Assembly (NCBI GenBank): GCA_038231275.1
Contig: JBBRLQ010000064.1
Coordinates: forward strand, 1 to 15,031
DNA length: 15,031 bases
Direction: 5' to 3'
From: Polyangiales bacterium
GTDB taxonomy: Bacteria; Myxococcota_A; Polyangia; Polyangiales; Polyangiaceae
Shown here: positions 359 to 15,031 of the stretch, piece by piece
Layout: each line of letters opens with the position of its first letter
Numbering within the stretch: the first letter of the stretch is position 1
Notes under the pieces: model-generated
What the model was told of the DNA's origin: nothing
The model's input: only the letters and a program-made list of their open reading frames with translations
Databases searched by the model: none
Made by a program: the position numbers and the translations under genes

Positions 359-525
359 TGGAAGTAATATTTCTACTGGTGTTCATCAGCTCGGTCCTCG
401 TGGCCTGCTCGATTGGAGCCTTCGTGTACACGATAAAACAGAACGATCACGATCACGTCGATCGCCTCGCCATCGCGCCGCTGCGCGACGACGATGGGGC
501 GCGGGCGGTTGGGGGGGCGTCGTGA
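358..525 (+). CDS. ccoS: cbb3-type oxidase assembly protein CcoS/FixS
   Basis: ATG at 358 overlaps the ccoI stop. [45 protein letters not shown]: 55 aa, one TM helix followed by an acidic segment. Lies between ccoI and ccoN. Confidence 0.8.
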
Positions 526-2846
526 GCGAGCCCCGCAGGCTCGAGGAGCAGACGATCGTCTACAACGACGCCATCGCCCGCCGCTTCCTCTTTGCCTCTG
601 TGGGCTGGGGAATCGTCGGGATGCTCGTCGGCGTCATCGTCGCCGCGCAGCTCATCTGGTTCCAGGGGAACGTCGCCCCGCAGCTGTCGTTCGGCCGGCT
701 GCGCCCGCTGCACACCAACGCGGTCATCTTCGCCTTCGTCGGCAACATGATGTTCGCCGGCGTCTACTACTCGACGCAGCGCCTGCTCAAGGCGCGCATG
801 GCCAGCGACCTCCTGGGCAAGATTCATTTCTGGGGCTGGCAGGCCATCATCGTCGCCGCCGCCATCACGCTGCCGTTGGGCTTCACGCAGGGCAAGGAGT
901 ACGCAGAGCTGGAGTGGCCCATCGATATCGCCATAGCGGTCATCTGGGTCGTGTTCGCTATCAACTTCTTCTGGACGCTGAAGAAGCGTAACGAGAAGCA
1001 CCTGTACGTGGCGATCTGGTTCTATATCGCCACGATCGTCACGGTGGCGGTGCTCCACATCGTCAACTCGCTCTCGCTGCCCTGGTCGCCGCTCAAGAGC
1101 TACCCGATCTACTCGGGCGTGCAGGACGCGCTCGTGCAGTGGTGGTACGGCCACAACGCCGTCGCGTTCTTCCTGACGACGCCGATCCTCGGCATCATGT
1201 ACTACTTCGTCCCGAAGGCGGCAGAGCGGCCGGTCTACAGCTACCGGCTCTCGATCATCCACTTCTGGGCGCTGGTGTTCCTCTACATCTGGGCCGGCCC
1301 GCACCACCTGCTCTTCACGGCGCTGCCGGACTGGGCGCAGACGCTCGGCATGGTCTTCAGCGTGATGCTCTGGGCGCCGTCGTGGGGCGGCATGCTCAAC
1401 GGCCTTCTCACGCTCCGCGGCGCGTGGGACAAAGTCCGCACCGATCCGGCGCTCAAGTTCTTCGCGGCGGCGATTACGTTTTACGGCATGGCGACGTTCG
1501 AGGGGCCGCTCCTCTCGATCAAGAGCGTCAACGGCCTCGCCCACTACACCGATTGGATCATCGGTCACGTCCACGCGGGCGCGCTCGGCTGGAACGGCTT
1601 CATGGCTGCGGGAATGTTCTATTGGATGGTCCCGCGTCTCTACGGCACGAAGCTCCACTCCAAGACGCTCGCGGAGACGCACTTCTACCTCGGGACCGTC
1701 GGCATCATCCTCTACGTCGTCTCGATGTGGGTGAGCGGCGTGACGCAGGGCATGATGTGGCGTGCGCTCGATCCGAAGGGCGTCCTGCTCTATCCGTCGT
1801 TCGTCGAGACGTTGATCGCGATCCGGCCGATGTACTGGGTCCGCCTCGCCGGCGGCACGATGTACCTCAGCGGAATGGTGATGATGGCCTACAACCTCGT
1901 CCGCACCGCGCGCTCCGGCAAGGCGGTCGACGGCGAGGCGCTCGTCACGGTGGAGTCGATCGCGCCGGAGGTGCCGTGGAAGAACGTCGTCTTCGGCGGG
2001 CCCGTCGTTCTCGTCGCCGTCGTCAGCGTTCTCGTCGGCGCGCTGGCGGTCGTCGGGATCAACGCGAGCGTCGCGATCGTCGCGCTGGCCACCGCGGTCG
2101 CGATCGGCGGGACCCTCGCGCTCCAGCTCTCGCGCACGGAGGGCCAAAAGGCCTGGCACCGCCTGCTCGAAGGGCGCGCGCTCATCTTCACCGCGTTCGT
2201 CGTCCTGGCGGTGCTCGTCGGCGGAGTGGCGGAGATCATCCCGACGATCATCACGACCCGCACCGACCCCGGCATGAGCGGCGCCGCGACGTACTCGGCC
2301 CTCGAGCTCGAGGGGCGTGACGTGTACCTGCGCGAGGGTTGCTACACGTGCCACTCGCAGATGATCCGGGCGATGCCGTTCGAGTCGGCACGCTACGGCG
2401 ACATCTCGCGCATCGACGACTCGCGGCACGATCACCCGTTCCAGTGGGGCAGCAAGCGCACCGGCCCCGATCTGGCGCGCGTGGGCGGCAAATACCCGAG
2501 CCTCTGGCACTACAGCCACATGCGCGATCCGCGCGCGACCTCGCCGGGCTCGAACATGCCGCCGTACGGGTTCCTCGTCGATGCGAAGGTGGATCTGACG
2601 CGAACGCACGAGAAGCTGCAGGCGCACAAGACCATCGGCGTTCCGTACACCGACGCGCAAATCGCGAACGCCGCGGCCGACGCGCGCGGGCAAGGCGAGG
2701 GGATCGCCAAAGAGCTCCACGAGCAAGGGGCGGACGTCGCGCCCGACAGCGAGCTCGTCGCGCTCGTCTCGTACCTGCAGCACCTCGGCAGGCCGCCGAC
2801 AGTGCTCGAGCCCAAGGTCCCCGCCGTCGCCGCGGCGGGGCACTGA
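522..2846 (+). CDS. ccoNO: cbb3-type cytochrome c oxidase, fused subunits I and II (CcoN-CcoO)
   Basis: CcoN motifs [36 protein letters not shown]. CcoO motifs [13 protein letters not shown] (CxxCH), [14 protein letters not shown]. No stop between the two parts. GTGA overlap with ccoS. Confidence 0.97.
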
Positions 2847-2858
2847 AAGGAGGAGGCG

Positions 2859-3080
2859 ATGTACCACGAATTTTTTACCAAGAGCCCGCTCCTCGCGTTC
2901 CCGATCGTCGCGCTCGTCATCTTCGTCGCGGTGTTCGGGCTCATCGTCCTGCGGACGCTGAGCAAGCGGGAGCGAGAGTCGGCGGGCGTCGCCAGTCTTC
3001 TCCCGCTCGAAGACGACGCGGCGCCACCGGCCGCGCCGGCGCGAATCGGTTCCACCCGTTCGGAGGGTCGTCATGAGTAG
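2859..3080 (+). CDS. ccoQ: Small single-TM subunit, CcoQ/FixQ-like
   Basis: Strong RBS (AAGGAGGAGG) before the ATG. One TM helix followed by ...LLPLEDD, typical of CcoQ. Located between ccoO and ccoP. Confidence 0.8.
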   Translation: MYHEFFTKSPLLAFPIVALVIFVAVFGLIVLRTLSKRERESAGVASLLPLEDDAAPPAAPARIGSTRSEGRHE

Positions 3081-3642
3081 TGATCCGGGCACGGAGCAGA
3101 AGGTCGTCCACGTCACCGGCGACGGCATCGAGGAGTTCGACAGCCACCTGCCCAACTGGTGGCTCGTGACCTTCTTCGGCGCGATCGTCTTCAGCATCGG
3201 GTACTGGTTCTATTTCCAGGTCTTCCAGATCGGCGAGACGAACCAAGCGGCCTGGCGCCGCGAGGTCGCCGAGATCGCGGAGCGCTCCGGGCAGAACGTG
3301 CCGGTCACCGCGCAGCAACTCGCCGAGCTCTCGAAGGATCCAGCGGTGCTCGCCGAGGGGAAGCAGATCTTCGTGTCGACGTGCGTGGCGTGCCACGCGC
3401 TGAACGGCGGCGGCGTGGTCGGGCCCAACTTGACCGACGAGTATTGGATCCACGGCGGCGGTCCCGAGCAAATCTACGCGACGGTCAAGGACGGTGTCCC
3501 GGTGAAGGGAATGCCGGCGTGGGGGCCTCAGCTCGGGGCGACGCGCGCGCAGGCAGTGACGGCCTACGTGCTCACGCTCCGCAACACGCACGCGCCCGGT
3601 GGAAAGCCGCCGCAAGGAGACAAATTCGCGCAAGCGAATTGA
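3073..3642 (+). CDS. ccoP: cbb3-type oxidase subunit III CcoP (short, mono-heme form)
   Basis: N-terminal DGIEEFDSHLPNWW (FixP_N-like) plus a TM helix, a single CVACH heme motif, GPNLTDEYWIHGG and GMPAW. GGAGG RBS upstream. Confidence 0.92.
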   Translation: MSSDPGTEQKVVHVTGDGIEEFDSHLPNWWLVTFFGAIVFSIGYWFYFQVFQIGETNQAAWRREVAEIAERSGQNVPVTAQQLAELSKDPAVLAEGKQIFVSTCVACHALNGGGVVGPNLTDEYWIHGGGPEQIYATVKDGVPVKGMPAWGPQLGATRAQAVTAYVLTLRNTHAPGGKPPQGDKFAQAN

Positions 3643-3649
3643 CGATGAC

Positions 3650-5059
3650 ATGACCACGCACCTCCCCGTCATCCCTCCGAAGAGCTCGCTTCGGATCGAC
3701 GGAACGCGCAACTTCGTGTACCCGGCGGACGTGAAGGGGAGGTTCACGATCGCGCGTAACGCTCTATTTTATGCCCTGATTGGCGTCTACGCGGCGCTCC
3801 CGTGGATCCAAATCCGTGGGAATCCGGCGGTCTATCTGGACATCGCCGAGCGAAAGTTCTTCCTCTTCGGGGCGACGTTCAACGCGCAGGACATCTGGAT
3901 GACGGTGTTCCTGCTCACCGGCGCCGCGTTCGGCCTCGTTTTCGCGACGGCGTTGCTCGGTCGCGCGTGGTGCGGCTGGGCGTGCCCGCAGACGGTCTTC
4001 CTCGAAGCCGTGTACCGACGCATCGAGCGCTTCGTGGAGGGCCCCCGCGAGAAGCGGATGCGCCGCGACGAGGGGCCGTGGACGATGAACAAGCTCGCGC
4101 GCAAGCTCGTCGTGCACACGCTGTGGATCGTCGTGTCCCTCGTCCTCGCGCACGTGTTCCTCAGCTACTTCGTGTCGCTGCGGCAGCTGTTCGACATGAT
4201 GCGCCATCGCCCGGCCGAGCACCCCGAGGCGTTCCTCGTCGTGATGGCGCTCGCCGGCCTGTTCTATTTCGACTTCGCCTGGTTCCGCGAGCAGTTCTGC
4301 GTCGTGATGTGCCCGTACGGACGCCTCCAGTCCGTGCTACTCGACCCCGACTCGCTGGTCGTCGGATACGACGCCGGCCGCGGCGAGCCGCGCGGAAAGG
4401 TGAAGGATCCTTCGCGCGGCGCGTGCGTCGACTGTAACCGCTGCGTGGTCGTGTGCCCGACCGGCATCGACATCCGCAACGGCCTGCAGATGGACTGCAT
4501 CGCCTGTACGCAGTGCATCGACGCGTGCGACGAGGTGATGGACAAGGTCGAGCAGCCGCGGGGGCTCATTCGCTACGACTCCCAGAACGGCCTCGCCGGC
4601 AAGCCGCGCCGCGTCGTGCGGTCTCGCGTGCTCGTTTACACGGGTCTCGGCGCCCTCGGCCTGCTCGTCGCGACGTTGTCGCTCTCGCGTCACGAGCGCT
4701 TCGAGTCCAACGTGCTGCGCGTGCAGGGAGCGCCGTATGTGCTCGACGGCGACGACGTCCGGAACGCGTACCGTTTGCACCTGATCAACAAGGACGGCCG
4801 CGCGACGACGTTCCACGTAATGCCCGAAGCGACGCCGGGCGTGTCGTTCATCGTGCCGCTCCCTGACGTGAAGCTGGAGTCGCTCGCCAGCGCCGACGTG
4901 CCGCTCTTCGCGACCATGCCGCGCAGCGCGTTTCACCCGCCGCGGACGCTGCGGATCGTCGTGACCAGCGATCTGGGCGATACGCGGACGATGATGGCGC
5001 CGTTCCTCGGGCCCGAGGGCGGCGCGACGCCGCACGCGACGCTCGGAGCCACGCCGTGA
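3650..5059 (+). CDS. ccoG: Cytochrome c oxidase accessory protein CcoG/FixG (4Fe-4S membrane protein)
   Basis: GRAWCGWACPQTVF, FCVVMCPYGRLQ, CVDCNRCVVVCPTGIDIRNGLQMDCIACTQCIDAC and a C-terminal Ig-like region (RNAYRLHLINK). Start placed at ATG 3650, just after the ccoP stop. Confidence 0.95.
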   Translation: MTTHLPVIPPKSSLRIDGTRNFVYPADVKGRFTIARNALFYALIGVYAALPWIQIRGNPAVYLDIAERKFFLFGATFNAQDIWMTVFLLTGAAFGLVFATALLGRAWCGWACPQTVFLEAVYRRIERFVEGPREKRMRRDEGPWTMNKLARKLVVHTLWIVVSLVLAHVFLSYFVSLRQLFDMMRHRPAEHPEAFLVVMALAGLFYFDFAWFREQFCVVMCPYGRLQSVLLDPDSLVVGYDAGRGEPRGKVKDPSRGACVDCNRCVVVCPTGIDIRNGLQMDCIACTQCIDACDEVMDKVEQPRGLIRYDSQNGLAGKPRRVVRSRVLVYTGLGALGLLVATLSLSRHERFESNVLRVQGAPYVLDGDDVRNAYRLHLINKDGRATTFHVMPEATPGVSFIVPLPDVKLESLASADVPLFATMPRSAFHPPRTLRIVVTSDLGDTRTMMAPFLGPEGGATPHATLGATP

Positions 5060-5775
5060 ACGCGCTGCCGCTCGCGACGTTCGCGCTCGGGCTCGTGGGC
5101 TCCACGCATTGCGTCGTCATGTGCGGAGGCATCGTCGGACTCGGCGCTGCTGCACGCGGACCGCGGTTGCCGCTCGCGCCGGGCGTCGGGCTCGCGCGCC
5201 GGACGATCGCGAGCTCGGCGGCGCAGCACGTCGGTCGCATCGGCACCTACGCGGTCGCAGGCGCGCTCGCAGGGGGTGCGGGTCGCCTGGCGGCGTCATC
5301 GTGGCAGCTTGGCCTCGAGATCGTCGCTGGCGCGCTCATGATCGGTCTTGGCCTCTTCTTGTGCGGGCTCTTGCCGAGCTTCGCGCGCGTCGAGTCGGTG
5401 GGCGCTCCGCTCTTTCGTCGCCTCCGGCCCCTCGGCCAGCGGCTCCTGCCGCTGCGTACGCCATGGCACGCGCTGGCGTTCGGCGCGGTGTGGGGACTCT
5501 TGCCGTGCGGCCTCGTTTACTCGGCGCTCTCGCTGGCAGTCCTCGCCGGTTCCGCGTCGAACGGCGCGCTGGCGATGGTGGCGTTCGGCGCAGGCACGGT
5601 GCCGGCCCTGGTCGCGGTCTCTGCGCTGCTGGGGTCGATGCGGCGCTTCTTCGCGGGCGCACGGCTGCGCGTGGCGGGCGGCGCGTTGGTCGCGCTGCTC
5701 GGCGCGGTCCACATGACTATGGCGATCGATCGACTCCACGACCCGCGCGCGACGTGCCACGCGGCGGCGCCGTGA
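5056..5775 (+). CDS. DsbD_2 / TauE-SafE-like membrane protein commonly associated with cco operons
   Basis: GSTHCVVMCGG and WGLLPCGLVYSAL motifs, multiple TM helices, GTGA overlap with ccoG. Confidence 0.88.
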   Translation: MNALPLATFALGLVGSTHCVVMCGGIVGLGAAARGPRLPLAPGVGLARRTIASSAAQHVGRIGTYAVAGALAGGAGRLAASSWQLGLEIVAGALMIGLGLFLCGLLPSFARVESVGAPLFRRLRPLGQRLLPLRTPWHALAFGAVWGLLPCGLVYSALSLAVLAGSASNGALAMVAFGAGTVPALVAVSALLGSMRRFFAGARLRVAGGALVALLGAVHMTMAIDRLHDPRATCHAAAP

Positions 5776-5821
5776 GCAGGCTTCGATTGCCCTGACGCGC
5801 GCGGTGGTCTAGCACCAGCGT

Positions 5822-6880
5822 ATGGCCGATCCCATCAGGCTCACGAAGATCGCGAAGCGCGCCGGTTGCGCGGCGAAGCACCCGCCCGGGTACCTCCTTC
5901 CTCTCCTCGCGGGGCTGCCGAAGGTCCAGGATCCGAACGTGCTCATCGGGAGCGCGTCATCGGACGACGCGGCGATTTACAGGCTCTCGGCCGACACGGC
6001 GCTCGTCCTCACGACCGATTTCTTTACGCCGGTCGTCGACGATCCGTACGACTTTGGCGCCGTCGCGGCGGCGAACGCCCTGAGCGACGTGTACGCGATG
6101 GGCGGGAGGCCGATTTCGGCGCTGAACATCGTGGGGTTCCCCGACGAGACGCTCGACGGTGCGGTCCTCGCCGAGATCTTGCGCGGCGGCGCGGAGAAGG
6201 CGCGCGAGGCGGGGATCGACATCGTCGGCGGCCACACGATCAAGACCGACGAGCCGATCTACGGCCTCTCGGTGACCGGCCTCGTGCACCCCGATCGCGT
6301 CCTGTCGAACGCAGGAGCGCGCCCCGGCGACCTCCTCGTGCTGACGAAGCCGCTCGGCATCGGGATCCTGACGACGGCGGCGAAGCAAGACGTGGACACG
6401 CGCGGCGCGATAGGCGACGCGATCGCGCTCATGAAGACGCTGAACCGCGCGGGCGCCGAGGCGGCGGAGGGATTGCCCATCCACGCGGCGACCGACGTGA
6501 CGGGGTTCGGGCTGCTCGGGCACCTGCGCAACGTGCTCGCGGCGAGCGGCTGCGCGGCGACGGTGTGGCTCGACGCGGTGCCGGTGTTGCCGGCGGCGTG
6601 GGAGTACGTGCGCGCGGGCGTCGCGCCAGGCGGCACGCACGCGAATCGCCGGTTTTTCACGGCCGGCGAGTGGGTGGCGTACGAGAACATCGACGACCCG
6701 GAGCAGCTCGTCTTGTGCGACGCGCAGACGTCGGGCGGCCTCCTCTTCGCGTTGCCCGAAGCGGACGCGCCCGCGCTCGTTCGCGCGCTCGAAGCACGTG
6801 GTACTCCGTGCGCGGCGATCGTCGGACGCGTCGAAGCGGGCGCACCGGGCAAGGCGCGCGTCGTTCGTTCGCGTCGCTGA
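5822..6880 (+). CDS. selD: Selenide, water dikinase (selenophosphate synthetase), Cys-type
   Basis: N-terminal RLT...GCAAK, DDAAIY, TTDFFTPVVDDPYDFGAVAAANALSDVYAMGG, GGHT, LTKPLGIG, TDVTGFGLLGHL, DAQTSGGLL. Confidence 0.96.
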   Translation: MADPIRLTKIAKRAGCAAKHPPGYLLPLLAGLPKVQDPNVLIGSASSDDAAIYRLSADTALVLTTDFFTPVVDDPYDFGAVAAANALSDVYAMGGRPISALNIVGFPDETLDGAVLAEILRGGAEKAREAGIDIVGGHTIKTDEPIYGLSVTGLVHPDRVLSNAGARPGDLLVLTKPLGIGILTTAAKQDVDTRGAIGDAIALMKTLNRAGAEAAEGLPIHAATDVTGFGLLGHLRNVLAASGCAATVWLDAVPVLPAAWEYVRAGVAPGGTHANRRFFTAGEWVAYENIDDPEQLVLCDAQTSGGLLFALPEADAPALVRALEARGTPCAAIVGRVEAGAPGKARVVRSRR

Positions 6881-8978: not shown

Positions 8979-10922
8979 TTACGCTCGGGCCGTGTCGGCG
9001 GCGATGACGGCGAGCAGCCCGTCGCCGTATTGCTCGATGCGACTGGGGCCGAGGCCGAAGATCGCCCCGAGCTCCCCGGGCGACCGCGGCCGTGCCACGG
9101 CCAGCTCGACCAGCGTGCGATCGTGGGCGACGACGTACGGCGGCACCCCACGCCCGCGCGCGATCTCCGCCCGATGCGCGCGCAGCTTTTCGAAGAGCGG
9201 ACGGTGCTCCTCGCCGATCTCCGGCCTGTCCGCGCGCTTCGCACGGCGATTTCCGTCACTGCTCGAAGAAGACGCCGTGCGGGCGCGCGGCTCGAGGGGG
9301 AGCACCAGCCGCGCCGGGCCGCGCCCGGTCATGACTTCTCCACCTGCGCGCGTCACGTACGGCACGGGGTGATCGGTGGGCGTGAGATCGATCCACCCCG
9401 CGGCCAGGAGCGCGCGCAAGAGCGCCATCAGCCACTCGTGCGAGCGGTCGCGGAGGAGCCCGAACGTCGTCAGACCCGTGAACCCGAACTTGCGCGTCCG
9501 CTCCGTCTCCGCGCCGCGCAGCATCTCCGCGATCGCGATGAGGCCTGCGCGCCCCTTCGCCCGCGCCACGCCCGAGAGCGCCATGCGCACGACCTTCTCC
9601 GCGCGCGCGCGCTCCTCGCTCGCGCCGTCGGCCGACTCCGGCACTTCGTCGAGGGCCATGCAGACGTCGCAGTGTCCGCAGCCGCCGAGGGTCTCTTGCT
9701 CGTCGCCGAAATACCGAAGGACAAAGTCATGGCGGCAGCTCCGCGCGTCGAGGTAGCGCAAGAGCTCGCGGAAGAGGCCCCACGCGCGCGCCGTCGCCAC
9801 GGGATCGGCCGGCCCGTCCATCGACGACTCACACATCCGGCGCCGCAGCGCGATGTCCACGCCCGAGCACAAGAGGAGGCCGTGCGCCTCTTGCCCGTCA
9901 CGCCCCGCGCGCCCGACCTCCTGGTAATACGCCTCGATCGACGCCGGTGGCTGCACGTGCACGACGGCGCGGATGTCCGAGCGATCGATGCCCATGCCGA
10001 ACGCGTTGGTGGCCACGACGACGTCGACCTGGCCGCCGGCGAACCGGCTCGCCACGCGCGTGCGCTCCTCGGCGCTGGCGCCTGCGTGGTAGTGCGCCGC
10101 TTTGTAGCCGCGGTCACGGAGGAGCGCCGCGTTCTCTTCCGCGCTCTTGCGGGTCGCCGCGTACACGATGGCGCCGCCGCGCTCGCCCTTGCCGATCGCC
10201 TTCTGCAGCGCTGTGAGAACCGAGCTTCGTGCCTCGCGCGGCCCGTCCACGAAGCGCGCCTCGAGGTGCAAGTTGGGCCTCGCGAAGCCGCGAAGCACCT
10301 CCTTGTGAGGCACGCGATCGAAGCCGAGCTGCGCCAGGATCTCGCGCCGCACCTCTGGCGTGGCCGTGGCGGTGCACGCGAGGACGCGCGGCGGCTGCAG
10401 TCGCGAGAGGAGAGCGCCGATCCTCAGGTAGTCGGGCCGAAAATCGTGCCCCCACTGCGCGATGCAGTGCGCCTCGTCGATCGCGACCAGCGGCACGTTG
10501 CACGACGCCACGAACGCGACGAACGCGTCCGAGGCCAGCCGCTCGGGCGCGACGTACACGAGCTTGTACTCGCCGCGCCGCATGCGTTGCTCGCGCTCGC
10601 GCCGCGTGTCCAAATCGAGCGTCGACGCGAGGAACGTCGCCGGCACGCCGCGCGCGTCGAGGCTGCGCACTTGGTCTTCCATGAGCGCGATGAGCGGCGA
10701 GACGACGAGCGTGGTTCCAGGCAAGACGGCCGCCGGCAGCTGGTAGGTCAGCGACTTTCCGCCGCCGGTCGGCGCGACGACGAGGACGCGCCCCGGTCCC
10801 TCGAGCAGCGCATCGATCGCGTCCCGCTGCCAGGGGCGAAACGCGTCGAGGCCAAAGCGCTCGCGCAGGACGTCGTCGAGGTCCAGGGGTGCGGGCTCGA
10901 GGTTCAACGCGGGCATGCTCAT
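8979..10922 (-). CDS. recQ: ATP-dependent DNA helicase RecQ (helicase core, Zn-binding/RQC, HRDC)
   Basis: APTGGGKSLTYQLPA, VVSPLIALMEDQV, IDEAHCIAQWGHDFRPDY, TATA, ATNAFGMGID, YYQEVGRAGRDG, CRH...CGHCDVC, HRDC-like VPPYVVAHDRTL. Start could be 10916. Confidence 0.96.
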   Translation of the reverse strand: MSMPALNLEPAPLDLDDVLRERFGLDAFRPWQRDAIDALLEGPGRVLVVAPTGGGKSLTYQLPAAVLPGTTLVVSPLIALMEDQVRSLDARGVPATFLASTLDLDTRREREQRMRRGEYKLVYVAPERLASDAFVAFVASCNVPLVAIDEAHCIAQWGHDFRPDYLRIGALLSRLQPPRVLACTATATPEVRREILAQLGFDRVPHKEVLRGFARPNLHLEARFVDGPREARSSVLTALQKAIGKGERGGAIVYAATRKSAEENAALLRDRGYKAAHYHAGASAEERTRVASRFAGGQVDVVVATNAFGMGIDRSDIRAVVHVQPPASIEAYYQEVGRAGRDGQEAHGLLLCSGVDIALRRRMCESSMDGPADPVATARAWGLFRELLRYLDARSCRHDFVLRYFGDEQETLGGCGHCDVCMALDEVPESADGASEERARAEKVVRMALSGVARAKGRAGLIAIAEMLRGAETERTRKFGFTGLTTFGLLRDRSHEWLMALLRALLAAGWIDLTPTDHPVPYVTRAGGEVMTGRGPARLVLPLEPRARTASSSSSDGNRRAKRADRPEIGEEHRPLFEKLRAHRAEIARGRGVPPYVVAHDRTLVELAVARPRSPGELGAIFGLGPSRIEQYGDGLLAVIAADTARA

Positions 10923-10991
10923 GGCCGCACGGGGATGGCAATCGTCATGCCCAGCAGCGCAGCACGGATATAGCGCGTTTTTCGATCACGC

Positions 10992-11030
10992 GGGTGTCCC
11001 GGACGGCGGTCCCGGCGTCCTGGGACACTC
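10992..11030. other. GC-rich inverted repeat / hairpin between the recQ start and the IS end
   Basis: GGGTGTCCCGGACG (10992-11005) pairs with CGTCCTGGGACACTC (11016-11030) with one bulge and one G-T pair. No U-tract. Confidence 0.6.
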
Positions 11031-11057
11031 GCTCTGCGCGGGCCGCTCCTCCTCTAG

Positions 11058-11574
11058 TTACACGGCGGTGCAGAATTCGGTTGAAGGACCGGCCTGAGCC
11101 GCCTCGATGAAGCGGCGCCGGGTCGGACGCTCGATTTCGCGTCGGGGGCGGTCAGGCGGTGTGGCGGGCGATGGCGACCAGGTTGTTCGAAATCCCCGCC
11201 CAATAGGCGCTGCGCTCGATGCCGTGAGCGCCGCGGTAGCGCGTGCGGTGCATGTCGAAGGTGTGTTTGAGGCGCGCGATGCGCGCTTCTCCGCCTGCAC
11301 GCCATGCACGTGCACGGCGGAACGGACGACGACGCTCGCGTTCGAGCCACGCGACGGAGCGGTGACCGGGTTTTGGAATCGCGACGCACGCGACGCCCAT
11401 CGCTTCCGGGGCGCGCACGTTTTCGAGCGAAAAAAAGCCTCGATCCGTTGCGAGCACGCGCGGTGGTCGCTTGAAGACGCTGCGGTGATGCTCAACCGAA
11501 GGTACGAGCAGTGCGGTGTCGTGCTCGGTCACGACAGCGATGTCGGTGACGATGCCGCCTTCGGCTTCCTGCGG
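11058..11574 (-). mobile_element. Truncated IS remnant (ISNCY/IS5-like): transposase 3' portion plus probable right end
   Basis: Transposase fragment (next feature). The minus strand continues ~90 bp to ...GAATTCTGCACCGCCGTGTA|ACTAG, a plausible terminus next to a CTAG. Left end is absent; exact terminus uncertain. Confidence 0.65.
11152..11574 (-). pseudogene. C-terminal fragment of a DDE transposase (ISNCY/IS5-like)
   Basis: Frame reads PQEAEGGIVTDIAVVTEHDTALLVPSVEHH...LATDRGFFS...WRAGGEARIARLKHTF...RYRG...SNNL, with the DRGF aspartate and R...E..I..LK glutamate motifs. In-frame TGA at 11575-11577 upstream; N-terminal majority is missing. Confidence 0.85.
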
Positions 11575-11582
11575 TCAATTTG

Positions 11583-11648
11583 GTCCACCGACATCCACTC
11601 GACCCGAGCTCCCGCCTTGTCGCGTGTAACGCGTTTTAGGAAAACCGC
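11583..11648 (+). repeat. Direct repeat copy 1 (66 bp) with dif/Xer-like core at 11619-11646
   Basis: GTCCACCGACATCCACTCGACCCGAGCTCCCGCCTTGTCGCGTGTAACGCGTTTTAGG-A-AAACCGC; identical to 14813-14878 except position 11641 (A vs T). Confidence 0.95.
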
Positions 11649-11764
11649 GCCGTTACCGCCCGCATGGCTTTGCATTTCCAACCCCCTCGATGCAGCGTTC
11701 GAGCGGACTCTCGGCGATGTACAGGCGAAGGAGCGGGTAGCCCATCCACTTGCGCAGGCGCCGG

Positions 11765-14005
11765 CTACTTCTCGGTCGCTCGCGCCGCCTCCACCGGCGC
11801 GGGGGACGGTACGCTCGGAACCCGGCTGGCTCGCGCGGGCAGCGTGAAGTAGAACGTCGCGCCGGCACCGAGGGTGCTCTTGGCCCCGATTCTCCCGCCG
11901 TGCGCTTCGACGATCCCCTTGGCGATGTACAGCCCCAGCCCCGCCCCGGCGCTGCGCACCCGGCGCGCCTGCCAATAGCGGTCGAAGATGTGCGCCAGCT
12001 CGAGGCCGTCGATCCCGGGCCCGGTGTCCTCGACGGAGAAGCAGACCGTTTCCGCCTCGGCGCGGATGGCGATCGTGACGGCGCCGCCCTGCGGGGTGAA
12101 CTTGATCGCGTTGCCGATGAGGTTGGAGAAGATCTGGAAGGCACGCTCCACGTCTACGTCCACCAACGCGTCGCTCTCGCCGCAAGAGAGGCGCACCCCC
12201 TTCGACTCCGCGATCGGCGCGAGGATCACGAACGCGTCGGAGACGAGCCGGCTCGCCTCATAGGGCTGGGGCGAGACGTCGAAGCGGCCGGCCTCGATCT
12301 TCGCGAGATCGAGCAGATCGAGGACGAGCCGGTTCATCCGGTCCACCGCGCGCTGAACGCGTCCAAGCGTGCTCTCGGCGCCGGCGTCTCCCCCGACGTG
12401 CCCGCGGAGCACCGCTGCCGAGAGCTGAAGGACGTTGAGAGGATTCTTCAGGTCGTGCGACAGCACCGCGACCATCTCGTCGCGGAGGCGCACCGCCTGC
12501 TCGGCGCGCGCGATTTGCTTGCCGAGATCGAGCTCGATCGCCCGCCGTCGGAGGTCCTCTGCGGCCTCGATTTCGGCGGGCCGCCAGGGGCGCGCGCGCG
12601 CACGCACGACCTGCTTCCAGGCATTGAACGAGTGCCGCGGGTGGTAGCGCGCACCGCCGTCGCTCACCTCCAGGGTCTTGGTCGGATCGCCCGCCCAGGT
12701 GACCGTCCGAACGAGCTCCGGACGAAACCACAGCACGTGGGAGAGCGCGACCCCAGGGAGGGCCAACGCGAGCAGCCCGCTCGCGACGTGAGTGTAGTCG
12801 GCCGCCGGCGGGTGCCGCTCCGCGAGCGCGTCGGTGTGCAGGATACCCGACGACCCTTCCTTGGCGAGCCACGCGACGAGCGCCGAGATCTGCGCCGTCG
12901 AAGGGGTCGCGCCCACCGTTCGCACGCTGCCGGCAGCACACACCGCAGCGCCCGTCGCGCCGACGAGCGCGAGCAGGGCGTCCCCTCGCTGCACGAGACC
13001 GCTCGCCGGGTCTTCTTGCGCGTCGCGCATCGCATCGACGAGCGTCGCCTCGTAGCCTTTCAGCGCACTGCGCAAAGTCCGCGCCTCGATCTCTTCGAGC
13101 GCCGCGATCTGCAGCGACACCACGCGCCCGATGACCTCGCACGCCGCGCGCGCCGCGAAGCTGACGTGTCGCGGGTGCCGGTGATGGCAGGCGACGAGCC
13201 CCCAGAGCGTCTCCGCACGCACCAGCGAAATGCTCATCGACGCGCGAACGCCCATGTTTTGCAGGTACTCGAGGTGCACCGGTGAGACGCTGCGCAGCGT
13301 GGAGAACGACATGTCGAGCGGCGCGCCCGTGTCCGGGCGCAGCTCGGGGACGAGCGGGATCGGCGTATAGCCGGCGTCGGGGATCAGACGCAGCCAGTTG
13401 AGTAGGTACATCTCGCGCGCCTGCCGCGGGATATCCGAGGCGGGGAAGCGCAGTCCTCGGTAGCTGTCCACGTCGACCGCGCGTGCCTCTTCGATCACGT
13501 CGCCGTGTCCGTCGGCGTCGAACCGGTAGAGCAGGACCCGGTCAAAGCCGGTGATCTTCCGGATCTCATCGACGGCGATGCTGCACACCTCCGCCACGCT
13601 GCTCGGCCGCTGGAGACGCGCGAGGGCGCTCCGCAGGGCCGCGTCGCTCGCGGAGGCGGCGGGGTCGTGCCGCTCGAACTCGAGGATGGCGACGCCCTGA
13701 TGGTAGTGCGCGCGCACGTCGAACAGCGACCCGCTCACGTGCGCGAGGAGGGGCTCGCCGAGCGTCGACCCCGCCGCGCGCACCGTCGAGAGCAGCGCTT
13801 CCGCGGTGACACCGACGAGCGCGGAGAGCGGCCGGCGGAGCGCGTCCGCCGGGGCAACGCCGAAGTAGGTCGCCGAGTTCGCGCTGACCTGCTGGACCTC
13901 GAAGCGATGCGTGTCGAGGACGACGAGCACACCGTGCGGCTGGACGGCACCGGGGACGTGGATTGGCTCCACGTCGCAGGCGCGCGCTTCGTCCTGGTTG
14001 GTCAC
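11765..14005 (-). CDS. bphP: Bacteriophytochrome histidine kinase (PAS-GAF-PHY-HisKA-HATPase), 746 aa
   Basis: GTG start overlapping the bphO stop. N-terminal biliverdin-binding Cys in ACDVEPIHVPGAVQPHG, GFDRVLLYRF, FPASDIPRQAR, LRSVSPVHLEYLQNMGV, LWGLVACHH, PHY tongue PRHSF, H-box SHDLKNPL, N-box NLIGNAIKF, G boxes DTGPGI and GAGLGL. Confidence 0.96.
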   Translation of the reverse strand: MTNQDEARACDVEPIHVPGAVQPHGVLVVLDTHRFEVQQVSANSATYFGVAPADALRRPLSALVGVTAEALLSTVRAAGSTLGEPLLAHVSGSLFDVRAHYHQGVAILEFERHDPAASASDAALRSALARLQRPSSVAEVCSIAVDEIRKITGFDRVLLYRFDADGHGDVIEEARAVDVDSYRGLRFPASDIPRQAREMYLLNWLRLIPDAGYTPIPLVPELRPDTGAPLDMSFSTLRSVSPVHLEYLQNMGVRASMSISLVRAETLWGLVACHHRHPRHVSFAARAACEVIGRVVSLQIAALEEIEARTLRSALKGYEATLVDAMRDAQEDPASGLVQRGDALLALVGATGAAVCAAGSVRTVGATPSTAQISALVAWLAKEGSSGILHTDALAERHPPAADYTHVASGLLALALPGVALSHVLWFRPELVRTVTWAGDPTKTLEVSDGGARYHPRHSFNAWKQVVRARARPWRPAEIEAAEDLRRRAIELDLGKQIARAEQAVRLRDEMVAVLSHDLKNPLNVLQLSAAVLRGHVGGDAGAESTLGRVQRAVDRMNRLVLDLLDLAKIEAGRFDVSPQPYEASRLVSDAFVILAPIAESKGVRLSCGESDALVDVDVERAFQIFSNLIGNAIKFTPQGGAVTIAIRAEAETVCFSVEDTGPGIDGLELAHIFDRYWQARRVRSAGAGLGLYIAKGIVEAHGGRIGAKSTLGAGATFYFTLPARASRVPSVPSPAPVEAARATEK

Positions 14006-14637
14006 GAGCCTGCCAGCGCTGCGTCGAGCCAGACGGTGAGCGTCTCGAAGGTCTCGATGGCCGCGGCGATCGCGACGTCGGTGTCGATCGCGGAGGCTGC
14101 ATCGACGTGGCGCGAGAAGCGCGTCCACATCGCCCCGGTCGCGTCGCCGTAGCCGCTGAAGAACGCCGCGCCCCCGGCGGCGTCGAGGCCGAGCGCGGCG
14201 TCGACGTGGCGAAGGATGATCCGTCCGCCGAGCGTCGCGCCCTCCAGCACGTAGAGCACCCCGATCGCCTGCGAGGCGGACGTGACGCGAGGCAGGTCGG
14301 CGCAGCGCGGGAGCGCCTGAACCTCGGCGACGGATTTCCCGAGCGCGGCGAGGTCGGCGACGAGCAGCGCCACCTTGCCGCGATCCCCGAGCGCGAGCGC
14401 GACCCCGTGCTCCGCCGCTGCTCGCGAGAGCCGTGGCTCGAGCTGCGCATAGACTCCATGAAACGCCTCGAGCACGCGCACATAAGTGGCAAGGGTCAGC
14501 GACGGAGACATCAGCGGGAGCGACGCCTCGACGCGCGCGTGCGCGAGCCGGGTGGCCTCGCGCAGCCTGTGCATCGGGCTCTGCGTCGCGGGCATCGTCG
14601 GCGCGTGGAAGAGGAGCTGGCTCGGTGCGGCGTTCAC
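14002..14637 (-). CDS. bphO: Biliverdin-producing heme oxygenase BphO
   Basis: RLREATRLAHARVE (proximal His), GVLYVLEGATLGGRII, FFSGYG..TGAMW..F, AIETF. GTG start at 14637 preceded by AAGAGGTGA RBS (alternative ATG at 14595). Coupled to bphP by a GTGA overlap. Confidence 0.92.
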   Translation of the reverse strand: MNAAPSQLLFHAPTMPATQSPMHRLREATRLAHARVEASLPLMSPSLTLATYVRVLEAFHGVYAQLEPRLSRAAAEHGVALALGDRGKVALLVADLAALGKSVAEVQALPRCADLPRVTSASQAIGVLYVLEGATLGGRIILRHVDAALGLDAAGGAAFFSGYGDATGAMWTRFSRHVDAASAIDTDVAIAAAIETFETLTVWLDAALAGS

Positions 14638-14705
14638 GCTCACCTCTTTCCCGCAAGACGTCATCGGCGTTTGCATTTGCGTCGTGCGTGCCCGAAGGGA
14701 CGACG

Positions 14706-14736
14706 ACCATAGCACTCTGCAGACTTGCCGCCGCAA
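14706..14736 (-). promoter_or_regulatory. Possible sigma70-type promoter for bphO-bphP (extended -10)
   Basis: Minus strand TTGCGG-19 nt-TATGGT with TG one base upstream of the -10 (TGcTATGGT). Spacing is suboptimal; pattern match only. Confidence 0.3.
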
Positions 14737-14812
14737 GCCGCTCGAACGCGCAGCGCTAGCGCACCGCGCTTAGCTAATCTAGGTCATCCGTTGAGCGTAG
14801 CGCCTACTCAAT

Positions 14813-14878
14813 GTCCACCGACATCCACTCGACCCGAGCTCCCGCCTTGTCGCGTGTAACGCGTTTTAGGTAAACCGC
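14813..14878 (+). repeat. Direct repeat copy 2 (66 bp) with dif/Xer-like core at 14849-14876
   Basis: Same sequence as 11583-11648, offset by 3230 bp. Core GTCGCGTGTAA-CGCGTT-TTAGGTAAACC. Confidence 0.95.
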
Positions 14879-15031
14879 CCACGAGCCGACGGGGCCGCAT
14901 CGCCGACGACGAGGCTCACCGAAACGCCCAGCCCACCCAGAAACGCGCACGCGGACGCAAGCCCGGGCCCTGCGAGATCGCCCAGCCATAGGGCATCCCG
15001 CCGTCGTCGATCCTCCCGATGATGGGCGCCC

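Follow-up and report, generated by a model that had tools for sequence, protein, structure and literature searches.

A bacteriophytochrome operon between direct repeats that probably are IS91/ISCR-type origin ends in a Polyangiales genome

Insertion sequences (IS) of the IS91 family start at an origin called oriIS, often overrun their stop and make no target duplication, and of their right end the last 82 bp suffice (PMC13181058). For IS801, fixed-length right-end miniatures have been described, and the element carries adjacent DNA (PMC3189936); it also has circular derivatives and acts in trans, and 228-nt direct repeats recombine at measurable rates (PMC6354349). Arrays of ISCR1 have been modelled as the product of a rolling-circle circle rescued by homologous recombination (PMC7707992). 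Together, the IS801 miniatures and the ISCR1 arrays are precedents (PMC3189936, PMC7707992) for the reading given below, in which a short repeat is an origin end that stands on its own, a solo end. In this study, we analyzed a 15,031-bp stretch of DNA (the window), which is the entire contig C64 of the 9.3-Mb, 94% complete assembly of a Polyangiales bacterium (G000) whose relatives' database labels point to myxobacteria. The subject is a bacteriophytochrome operon, bphO-bphP, that lies in the window between two copies of a direct repeat.

An earlier note on this DNA had described 66-bp direct repeats, 65/66 identical and 3230 bp apart, that enclose bphO and bphP, and this description was confirmed (11583-11648 and 14813-14878). 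The match is far above chance (blastn E-value 1e-26), and with a 3-bp gap allowed it begins at 11576 and 14809 and reaches 69/70. We found that the repeat is part of a sequence of about 109 bp with four copies in this genome, two in the window and two elsewhere, near the end of C1 and near the start of C18 (Table 1). The window copies differ from each other by a substitution, a 3-bp deletion and length, and within the conserved terminal CCTA word one base of the left copy differs from the C1 copy. Read by eye, none of the four copies has terminal inverted repeats or a target duplication. The C1 copy sits 2.3 kb inside a patch linked to a transfer RNA (tRNA) gene, tRNA-Lys, with an integrase-core fragment, and the C18 copy truncates a sigma-54 ATPase gene beside an IS3 end.

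Table 1. Positions of the repeat copies, the enclosed operon and the genes and mobile-element remnants around them (window positions unless a contig is given).
Feature	Position	Strand	Remarks
Left repeat, full length (~109-111 bp)	11576..11686	+	Probable solo IS91/ISCR-type origin end; 96% identical to the C1 copy
Semi-palindromic box	11576..11586	+	Starting point of all four copies
Imperfect subterminal palindrome	11626..11656	+	Seen in the sequence
Putative oriIS-type terminal motif	11662..11684	+	18.4 bits in the profile scan
Right repeat, damaged	14809..14878	+	3-bp deletion in the box; 214-bp deletion against the C1 block; origin terminus gone
Third copy	C1:766867-766977		Shares 111 bp with the left window copy at 96%
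Fourth copy	C18:1145-1226		89%
Further second-family copies	C2:2200-2306 and C56:24082-24141
bphP, bacteriophytochrome histidine kinase, 746 aa	11765..14005	-	PAS_2-GAF-PHY-HisKA-HATPase; N-terminal Cys, PASDIP, PRxSF and H-box present
bphO, heme oxygenase	14002..14574	-	PF01126, E 5e-14; 4-bp overlap with the bphP start
ISNCY-family right end and last ~139 codons	11051..11572	-	NF033593, E 2e-35, positions 308-444; cut off at the left repeat
ISNCY left end and first ~97 codons	G000:C20:144900-145276		End of C20; neighbours the gene found after recQ in the congeners
Two-copy secreted beta-barrel-like protein gene, 3' end	14874..15031	-	98.7% to the C1 end; contig breaks here
recQ	8979..10922	-	Pfam; the backbone kept in both congeners ends with this gene; orthologs 87-88%

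We consider it very probable that the repeat is the last ~109 bp, the oriIS-bearing right end, of an IS91/ISCR-type (Y2 HUH) rolling-circle element with its origin pointing to the right, because ends that are linked to such transposases rank and align with it. Tails were gathered from 28 Y2 transposase loci in 12 of 23 genomes, and a profile was built from the 11 foreign tails with a recognisable end (one of 12 candidates was dropped, and the remaining tails were from this genome itself, duplicate, truncated or unclear). Among 18.5 million positions, the profile ranked the end of the C1 copy 1st and that of the left window copy 9th, ranks that are somewhat optimistic because the anchors were picked by eye after the likeness had been seen. 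In global alignments (lengths 109, 107 and 107), the repeat reached z 5.4 against the transposase-linked end of the congener G001 and z 4.2 against that of contig C68 of this genome, each score beating the best of 500 shuffles. The right window copy (3.3 bits) and the C18 copy lack the terminal motif in the profile scan. The linked open reading frames are of the ISCR/IS91 type; the best family match of the local transposases is NF052416, clade Ia, far under its cut-off, and this genome has five PF04986 matches, all on small contigs. A box similar to the one that starts the repeat lies 49-86 nt past the transposase stop in three transposase-linked ends. For a target word beside the origin, this genome offers only two full copies; among the G001 copies, TC follows the end in five distinct right flanks and not in the sixth, and the word at the left edge varies.

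Several results weigh against this assignment. In addition to the choice of anchors by eye, the same profile recovered only two of four transposase-linked ends of this genome (ranks 13 and 25) and missed those of C127 and C68. No cognate transposase gene with exactly this end was found in the assembly, where none of the five tails matches the repeat, and the surroundings of the four copies showed no Y2 remnant. Sister families do have a Y2 transposase directly upstream of the end, on C68 and in G001 and G044. The lack of a cognate upstream transposase weakens the assignment to a named element but leaves untouched the likeness in how the end works.

The repeat might instead be the remnant of an end of an IS3-family element of the IS407 group (the IS3 subgroup names are our own reading). 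Over its first 16 bases it agrees at 14 positions with the left inverted repeat of an IS3 element on C18, and it scores 12.4 bits with a subterminal profile (rank 255 of 18.5 million). We rejected this reading, which we regard as extremely unlikely, because the terminal cleavage domain is missing from all four copies (1.2 bits or less with the full profile) and none of the IS3 tails from 30 loci is like the interior of the repeat; moreover, the other end fits IS91-type termini much better. Two further candidates did not hold up. ISNCY coding sequence as the source of the repeat was rejected (DNA z up to 1.4 and no hidden Markov model match), and a hairpin-dependent element was not supported by folding, with z of only -1.1 and -1.6 for the full copies against shuffles and the whole repeat folding no better than shuffles.

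In these myxobacteria, solo ends build same-direction arrays around cargo. G001 has one linked and five solo copies of a 107-bp end that are 98-100% identical, with both edges sharp; on its contigs C92 and C126, the solo ends occur as two directly oriented groups, of two and of three, that surround 0.6-6 kb of cargo, co-oriented within each contig. In G044, five co-oriented solo ends lie within ~30 kb of the parent (C12:94909-125190). These are two of the five other genomes tested; in the remaining three (G037, G002 and G040) no solo copies were found with the tails tried, which counts against our reading of the locus. Here, one of the five own tails has solo copies. This second family (C68:1420-5484) has a 105-bp direct repeat, 99% identical and 3961 bp apart, that starts with a similar box. 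The C-terminal part of an IS91/ISCR-type transposase precedes the first copy by ~50 bp, and the genes inside the pair were labelled by eye as glyoxalase-like and peptidase-like. Viral contigs gave no relative of the C68 transposase tail. Where the flanks of solo ends could be checked, they are mostly pieces of unrelated genes. The fixed box, together with the near-identical copies of the G001 and G044 arrays, is direct test material for the origin of the left edge of solo ends.

Outside this genome, no convincing copy of the repeat turned up. It was found in none of 60 relatives, and a search of family genomes (two candidates scored per genome) gave weak matches in 7 of 382, at E-values of 6e-4 or worse, of which the four that we inspected are chance matches. 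Exact repeat patterns had no matches in metagenome contigs or genome contigs and three chance matches in viral contigs, plasmids gave no real match, and one further search outside the genome returned GC-rich noise only. A 17-mer of the repeat with two mismatches allowed was found in 136 of 383 genomes, a tally that, like that of the preceding search, includes G267 and G307 (flagged as unpublished, no claim resting on them), and 30 inspected loci had no further likeness.

As for the cargo, BphO and BphP look like an ordinary pair that makes biliverdin and senses red/far-red light, with no linked response regulator. The closest database proteins to BphP are 77% identical. The GC content at third codon positions (GC3) of both genes is 0.89 compared with 0.90-0.94 in the backbone genes, so any donor would have been compositionally similar. 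BphP has no match in either of the two congeners, and PHY domains over the cut-off occur in 19 of 151 genomes, this one included. At 23 PHY loci that we fetched, bphO adjoins bphP in nine, with differing neighbourhoods and in no case with this repeat. Flanking direct repeats at these nine pairs were clear in one genome (G020), marginal in one (score 40 against a shuffle maximum of 38) and absent in seven. Pieces from sequencing runs X2 and X7 that are ~92% alike to bphO-bphP end their match at 14677 (in X2 also at 11834), short of the repeats; these limits are suggestive only, because intergenic DNA diverges fast.

We noted two further arrangements at related pairs. In G020:C1 (L142:6844-7288 and 10373-10560), bphO-bphP is flanked by an 87% identical direct duplicate of the 5' end of the neighbouring arginase-family gene, with a spacing of ~3275 bp, an internal deletion and an additional 45-bp inverted match; this sequence is unrelated to the window repeat. 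In G333:C109 (L161:2473-3390), an integrase-core fragment fused to a Gp49-like domain adjoins a related bphO-bphP pair.

The strain-specific DNA in the window does not begin at the repeat. Both congeners keep the backbone from ccoNOQP to recQ until window positions 11000-11043, where synteny stops. Beyond it they have one or two variable genes and then sequence that is found here at the end of C20, and the repeat is absent from the interval that separates recQ from the following backbone gene. The synteny break coincides with the end of an ISNCY-family element, and homology to intact ISNCY relatives ends 3 bp short of the left repeat, at 11572; in run X2, a contig of 2049 bp matches 11054-11572 and then continues beyond. 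The other ISNCY half is at the end of C20, and between the halves ~690 bp from the middle of the transposase gene are missing. From synteny, we infer that C64 and C20 join. With one ISNCY half in the window and the other on C20, bphO-bphP and both repeats would lie between the two halves. So delimited, the strain-specific DNA is longer than 3230 bp and its apparent limits are the ISNCY ends, not the repeats.

The earlier note had proposed a new kind of element, a 3230-bp site-specific cassette moved in trans, with the repeats as tyrosine-recombinase attachment (att) sites. Part of this stands: bphO-bphP is an accessory feature of the locus, the repeats derive from mobile DNA, and a 3230-bp circle formed by an enzyme acting in trans is plausible as a past intermediate. 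The site-specific cassette is not supported. The repeats are dispersed (four copies) and have the hallmarks of a known IS91/ISCR origin end including the terminus, findings that the earlier note had itself named as grounds for refutation; one copy is damaged, the congeners have no empty target, and their synteny breaks at the ISNCY end, ~550 bp outside the left repeat. Near identity had been taken as a sign of recent activity or selection; the 65/66 identity of the window copies is no higher than that with the unlinked C1 copy (68/70), and the right copy has suffered damage. As claimed, neither a recombinase nor a transposase was seen between the repeats, and the ISNCY transposase remnant that abuts the left copy had been missed. 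A possible promoter between the repeats did not reappear: a sigma-70 scan of 10900-15031 gave no promoter-like site.

On balance, we think it likely that bphO-bphP was captured by rolling-circle read-through and then recombined into a resident end. A mini end of ~109 bp, from the box to the origin terminus, would have landed in a donor at a point 234 bp upstream of bphO. Starting at that origin, a transposase acting in trans would then have read through the box and bphO-bphP and stopped ~80 bp past the bphP stop codon, closing a circle of ~3.2 kb. Recombination of this circle into a resident copy of the same end would give the order end-cargo-end, and deletions in the right copy have taken its origin terminus. 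Relative to the right copy, the cargo sits where rolling-circle read-through would pick it up. In line with this history, the flanks are not contiguous, since the left copy joins the middle of ISNCY to DNA near the end of bphP. The left copy is directed away from the cargo and would take DNA from the recQ side. With the right copy lacking its terminus and the left copy facing away, the unit could now leave only by ordinary recombination between the ~70-bp repeats, and the cargo is probably fixed today.

There are points against this history. We saw neither an empty site nor a donor site nor a circle junction, and the contigs from the probable source run, which break inside both repeats, cannot reveal either a circle or an empty site. 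Duplication has also affected DNA on the "wrong" side, since a block of the beta-barrel-like gene lies on the outer side of the origin both at C1 and in the window, and read-through alone does not explain this. This gene, with its middle unassembled, probably links the ends of C64, C1, C20 and C108; its probable 5' halves at the ends of C20 and C108 have weak scores of 6.6-7.0 bits, and "beta-barrel-like" is a label by reading (Pfam gave no family for two barrel homologs). A hint of a hydrolase in a different reading frame at the C1 end (score 0.79) was not borne out. Finally, most IS801 fragments were concluded to arise by reorganisation and to serve as recombination regions, not as carriers (PMC3189936).

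That conclusion agrees with a different account, in which the bracket is incidental: origin ends landed independently in an IS-rich island or were shuffled there, bphO-bphP came in as part of a larger piece, and the ends are joints of rearrangement. The strain-specific DNA, longer than 3230 bp and bounded by ISNCY halves, is what this account would expect, the second-family copy at C68:5385, with its flanks joined, looks like a simple insertion close to where a gene has its 3' end, and the C1 and C18 copies are also beside IS debris or a tRNA island. We nevertheless find this account somewhat unlikely, as precisely one complete two-gene operon lies between the repeats, with margins of 78 and 234 bp, and every array that we saw is co-oriented, which independent landings would not need.

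An assembly artefact is still less probable, to the point of being nearly negligible. The genome is a metagenome assembly, and with source-run contigs breaking inside both repeats, the locus is not phased. However, these contigs confirm three junctions (10682-11605, 11611-12124 and 13958-14842) at 99.9-100%, and the copies differ by the substitution, the 3-bp deletion and the length given above. The contigs come from the probable source run and are not independent support. Among the 15 of 79 source-run joints that were listed, none is at the repeats.

We also considered what the box at the left edge may do. More speculatively, IS91/ISCR-type elements in this myxobacterial family may hold a dedicated site, semi-palindromic and 105-110 nt inside the origin end, that serves as a programmed second cut or crossover, releasing a standard unit of ~107 bp that builds integron-like arrays in trans, with bphO-bphP captured in this way. 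We think this unlikely; if true, it would help explain the patchy distribution of red-light sensing in the group. A modified form of the earlier note's idea, in which a tyrosine or serine recombinase crosses over at the box, so that the moving unit is the box, the origin end and the DNA that follows, as in an integron, seems very unlikely to us. It would account for the box at the start of all four copies here, two of three second-family solo copies and all five G001 solo copies, often with 1-3 matching bases to its left, and the outer-side barrel block fits such a polarity. Eight PF00589 matches over the cut-off in the genome would provide candidate enzymes, and an island integrase is known to mobilise CR2-sul2 (PMC9376610). 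On the other hand, the G001 and G044 copies are sharp at both edges, with the right edge at the origin terminus; IS801 miniatures have fixed left edges without a recombinase (PMC3189936); of 13 transposase-linked tails scanned, only 3 have the box and one more has a weak match; and the G044 array starts at a different word, and the box of the right window copy is damaged.

At 360-6880 of the window there is a cbb3-type oxidase cluster (fused ccoN-O, ccoP, ccoG and a downstream membrane protein, named by eye) and then a selD-like gene, all conserved in both congeners. No tRNA gene was found within the window, and Rfam gave no matches at E-values up to 1 across 10900-15031. Genome-wide, direct-repeat pairs of at least 50 bp and at least 95% identity, 1-20 kb apart, gave 12 alignments on eight contigs, several of which are simple repeats or a tRNA duplication. 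At G000:C1:13649-17054 we observed a 56-bp direct repeat, 3350 bp apart, that resembles a duplicated piece of a tRNA and is likely a conventional tRNA-targeted islet. Nested insertion sequences were seen at G000:C63:1-3495 and C13:227015-227350, where an IS3 element is broken by an IS66-like element and another IS3 end, with the right end of one IS3 just inside the left end of another.

In place of a new recombinase cassette, a known gene-capture route, studied mostly for resistance and virulence genes, is thus our reading of the locus, and the IS91/ISCR route has probably handled a sensory operon in an environmental myxobacterium. We found no published description of mobile-element capture of a bacteriophytochrome or bphO, or of IS91 rolling-circle transposition in myxobacteria (subscription journals were outside the scope of this search).

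The closest described systems resemble this locus in different ways. The IS801 miniatures of Pseudomonas syringae (PMC3189936, PMC6354349) also have no transposase, retain the origin end and begin at a fixed left edge; they can be mobilised in trans, carry adjacent DNA or form circles, and act as recombination regions, as the ends here would in our reading. They differ in being 229-679 nt long and starting at a target-like tetranucleotide without a palindrome, whereas the solo ends here are 105-111 nt, start at a semi-palindromic box common to three distinct elements and have no parent in hand; PMC3189936 did not report such a box in the IS801 miniatures. ISCR1 arrays in complex class 1 integrons (PMC7707992) share the transposase superfamily and the direct duplications around cargo. 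In those arrays the repeat is the integron 3' segment plus the whole ISCR, and here it is only the ~110-bp origin end, in a myxobacterial host and with a photoreceptor operon as cargo. Cassettes flanked by att sites, such as CR2-sul2 moved by the GIsul2 integrase (PMC9376610), also have direct repeats around cargo that encodes no enzyme for its own movement; unlike them, the window repeats have no conserved host target gene, have dispersed copies of which one is damaged, and end in an IS91-type terminus. The cargo resembles the SaBphP1/2 operons of Stigmatella (PMC6126659), with a heme oxygenase and a PAS-GAF-PHY histidine kinase with PASDIP and PRxSF motifs, although those operons are described with a response regulator and none lies between the window repeats. 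The class of element itself is known; what is new here is the phytochrome cargo and a boundary box common to three distinct elements.

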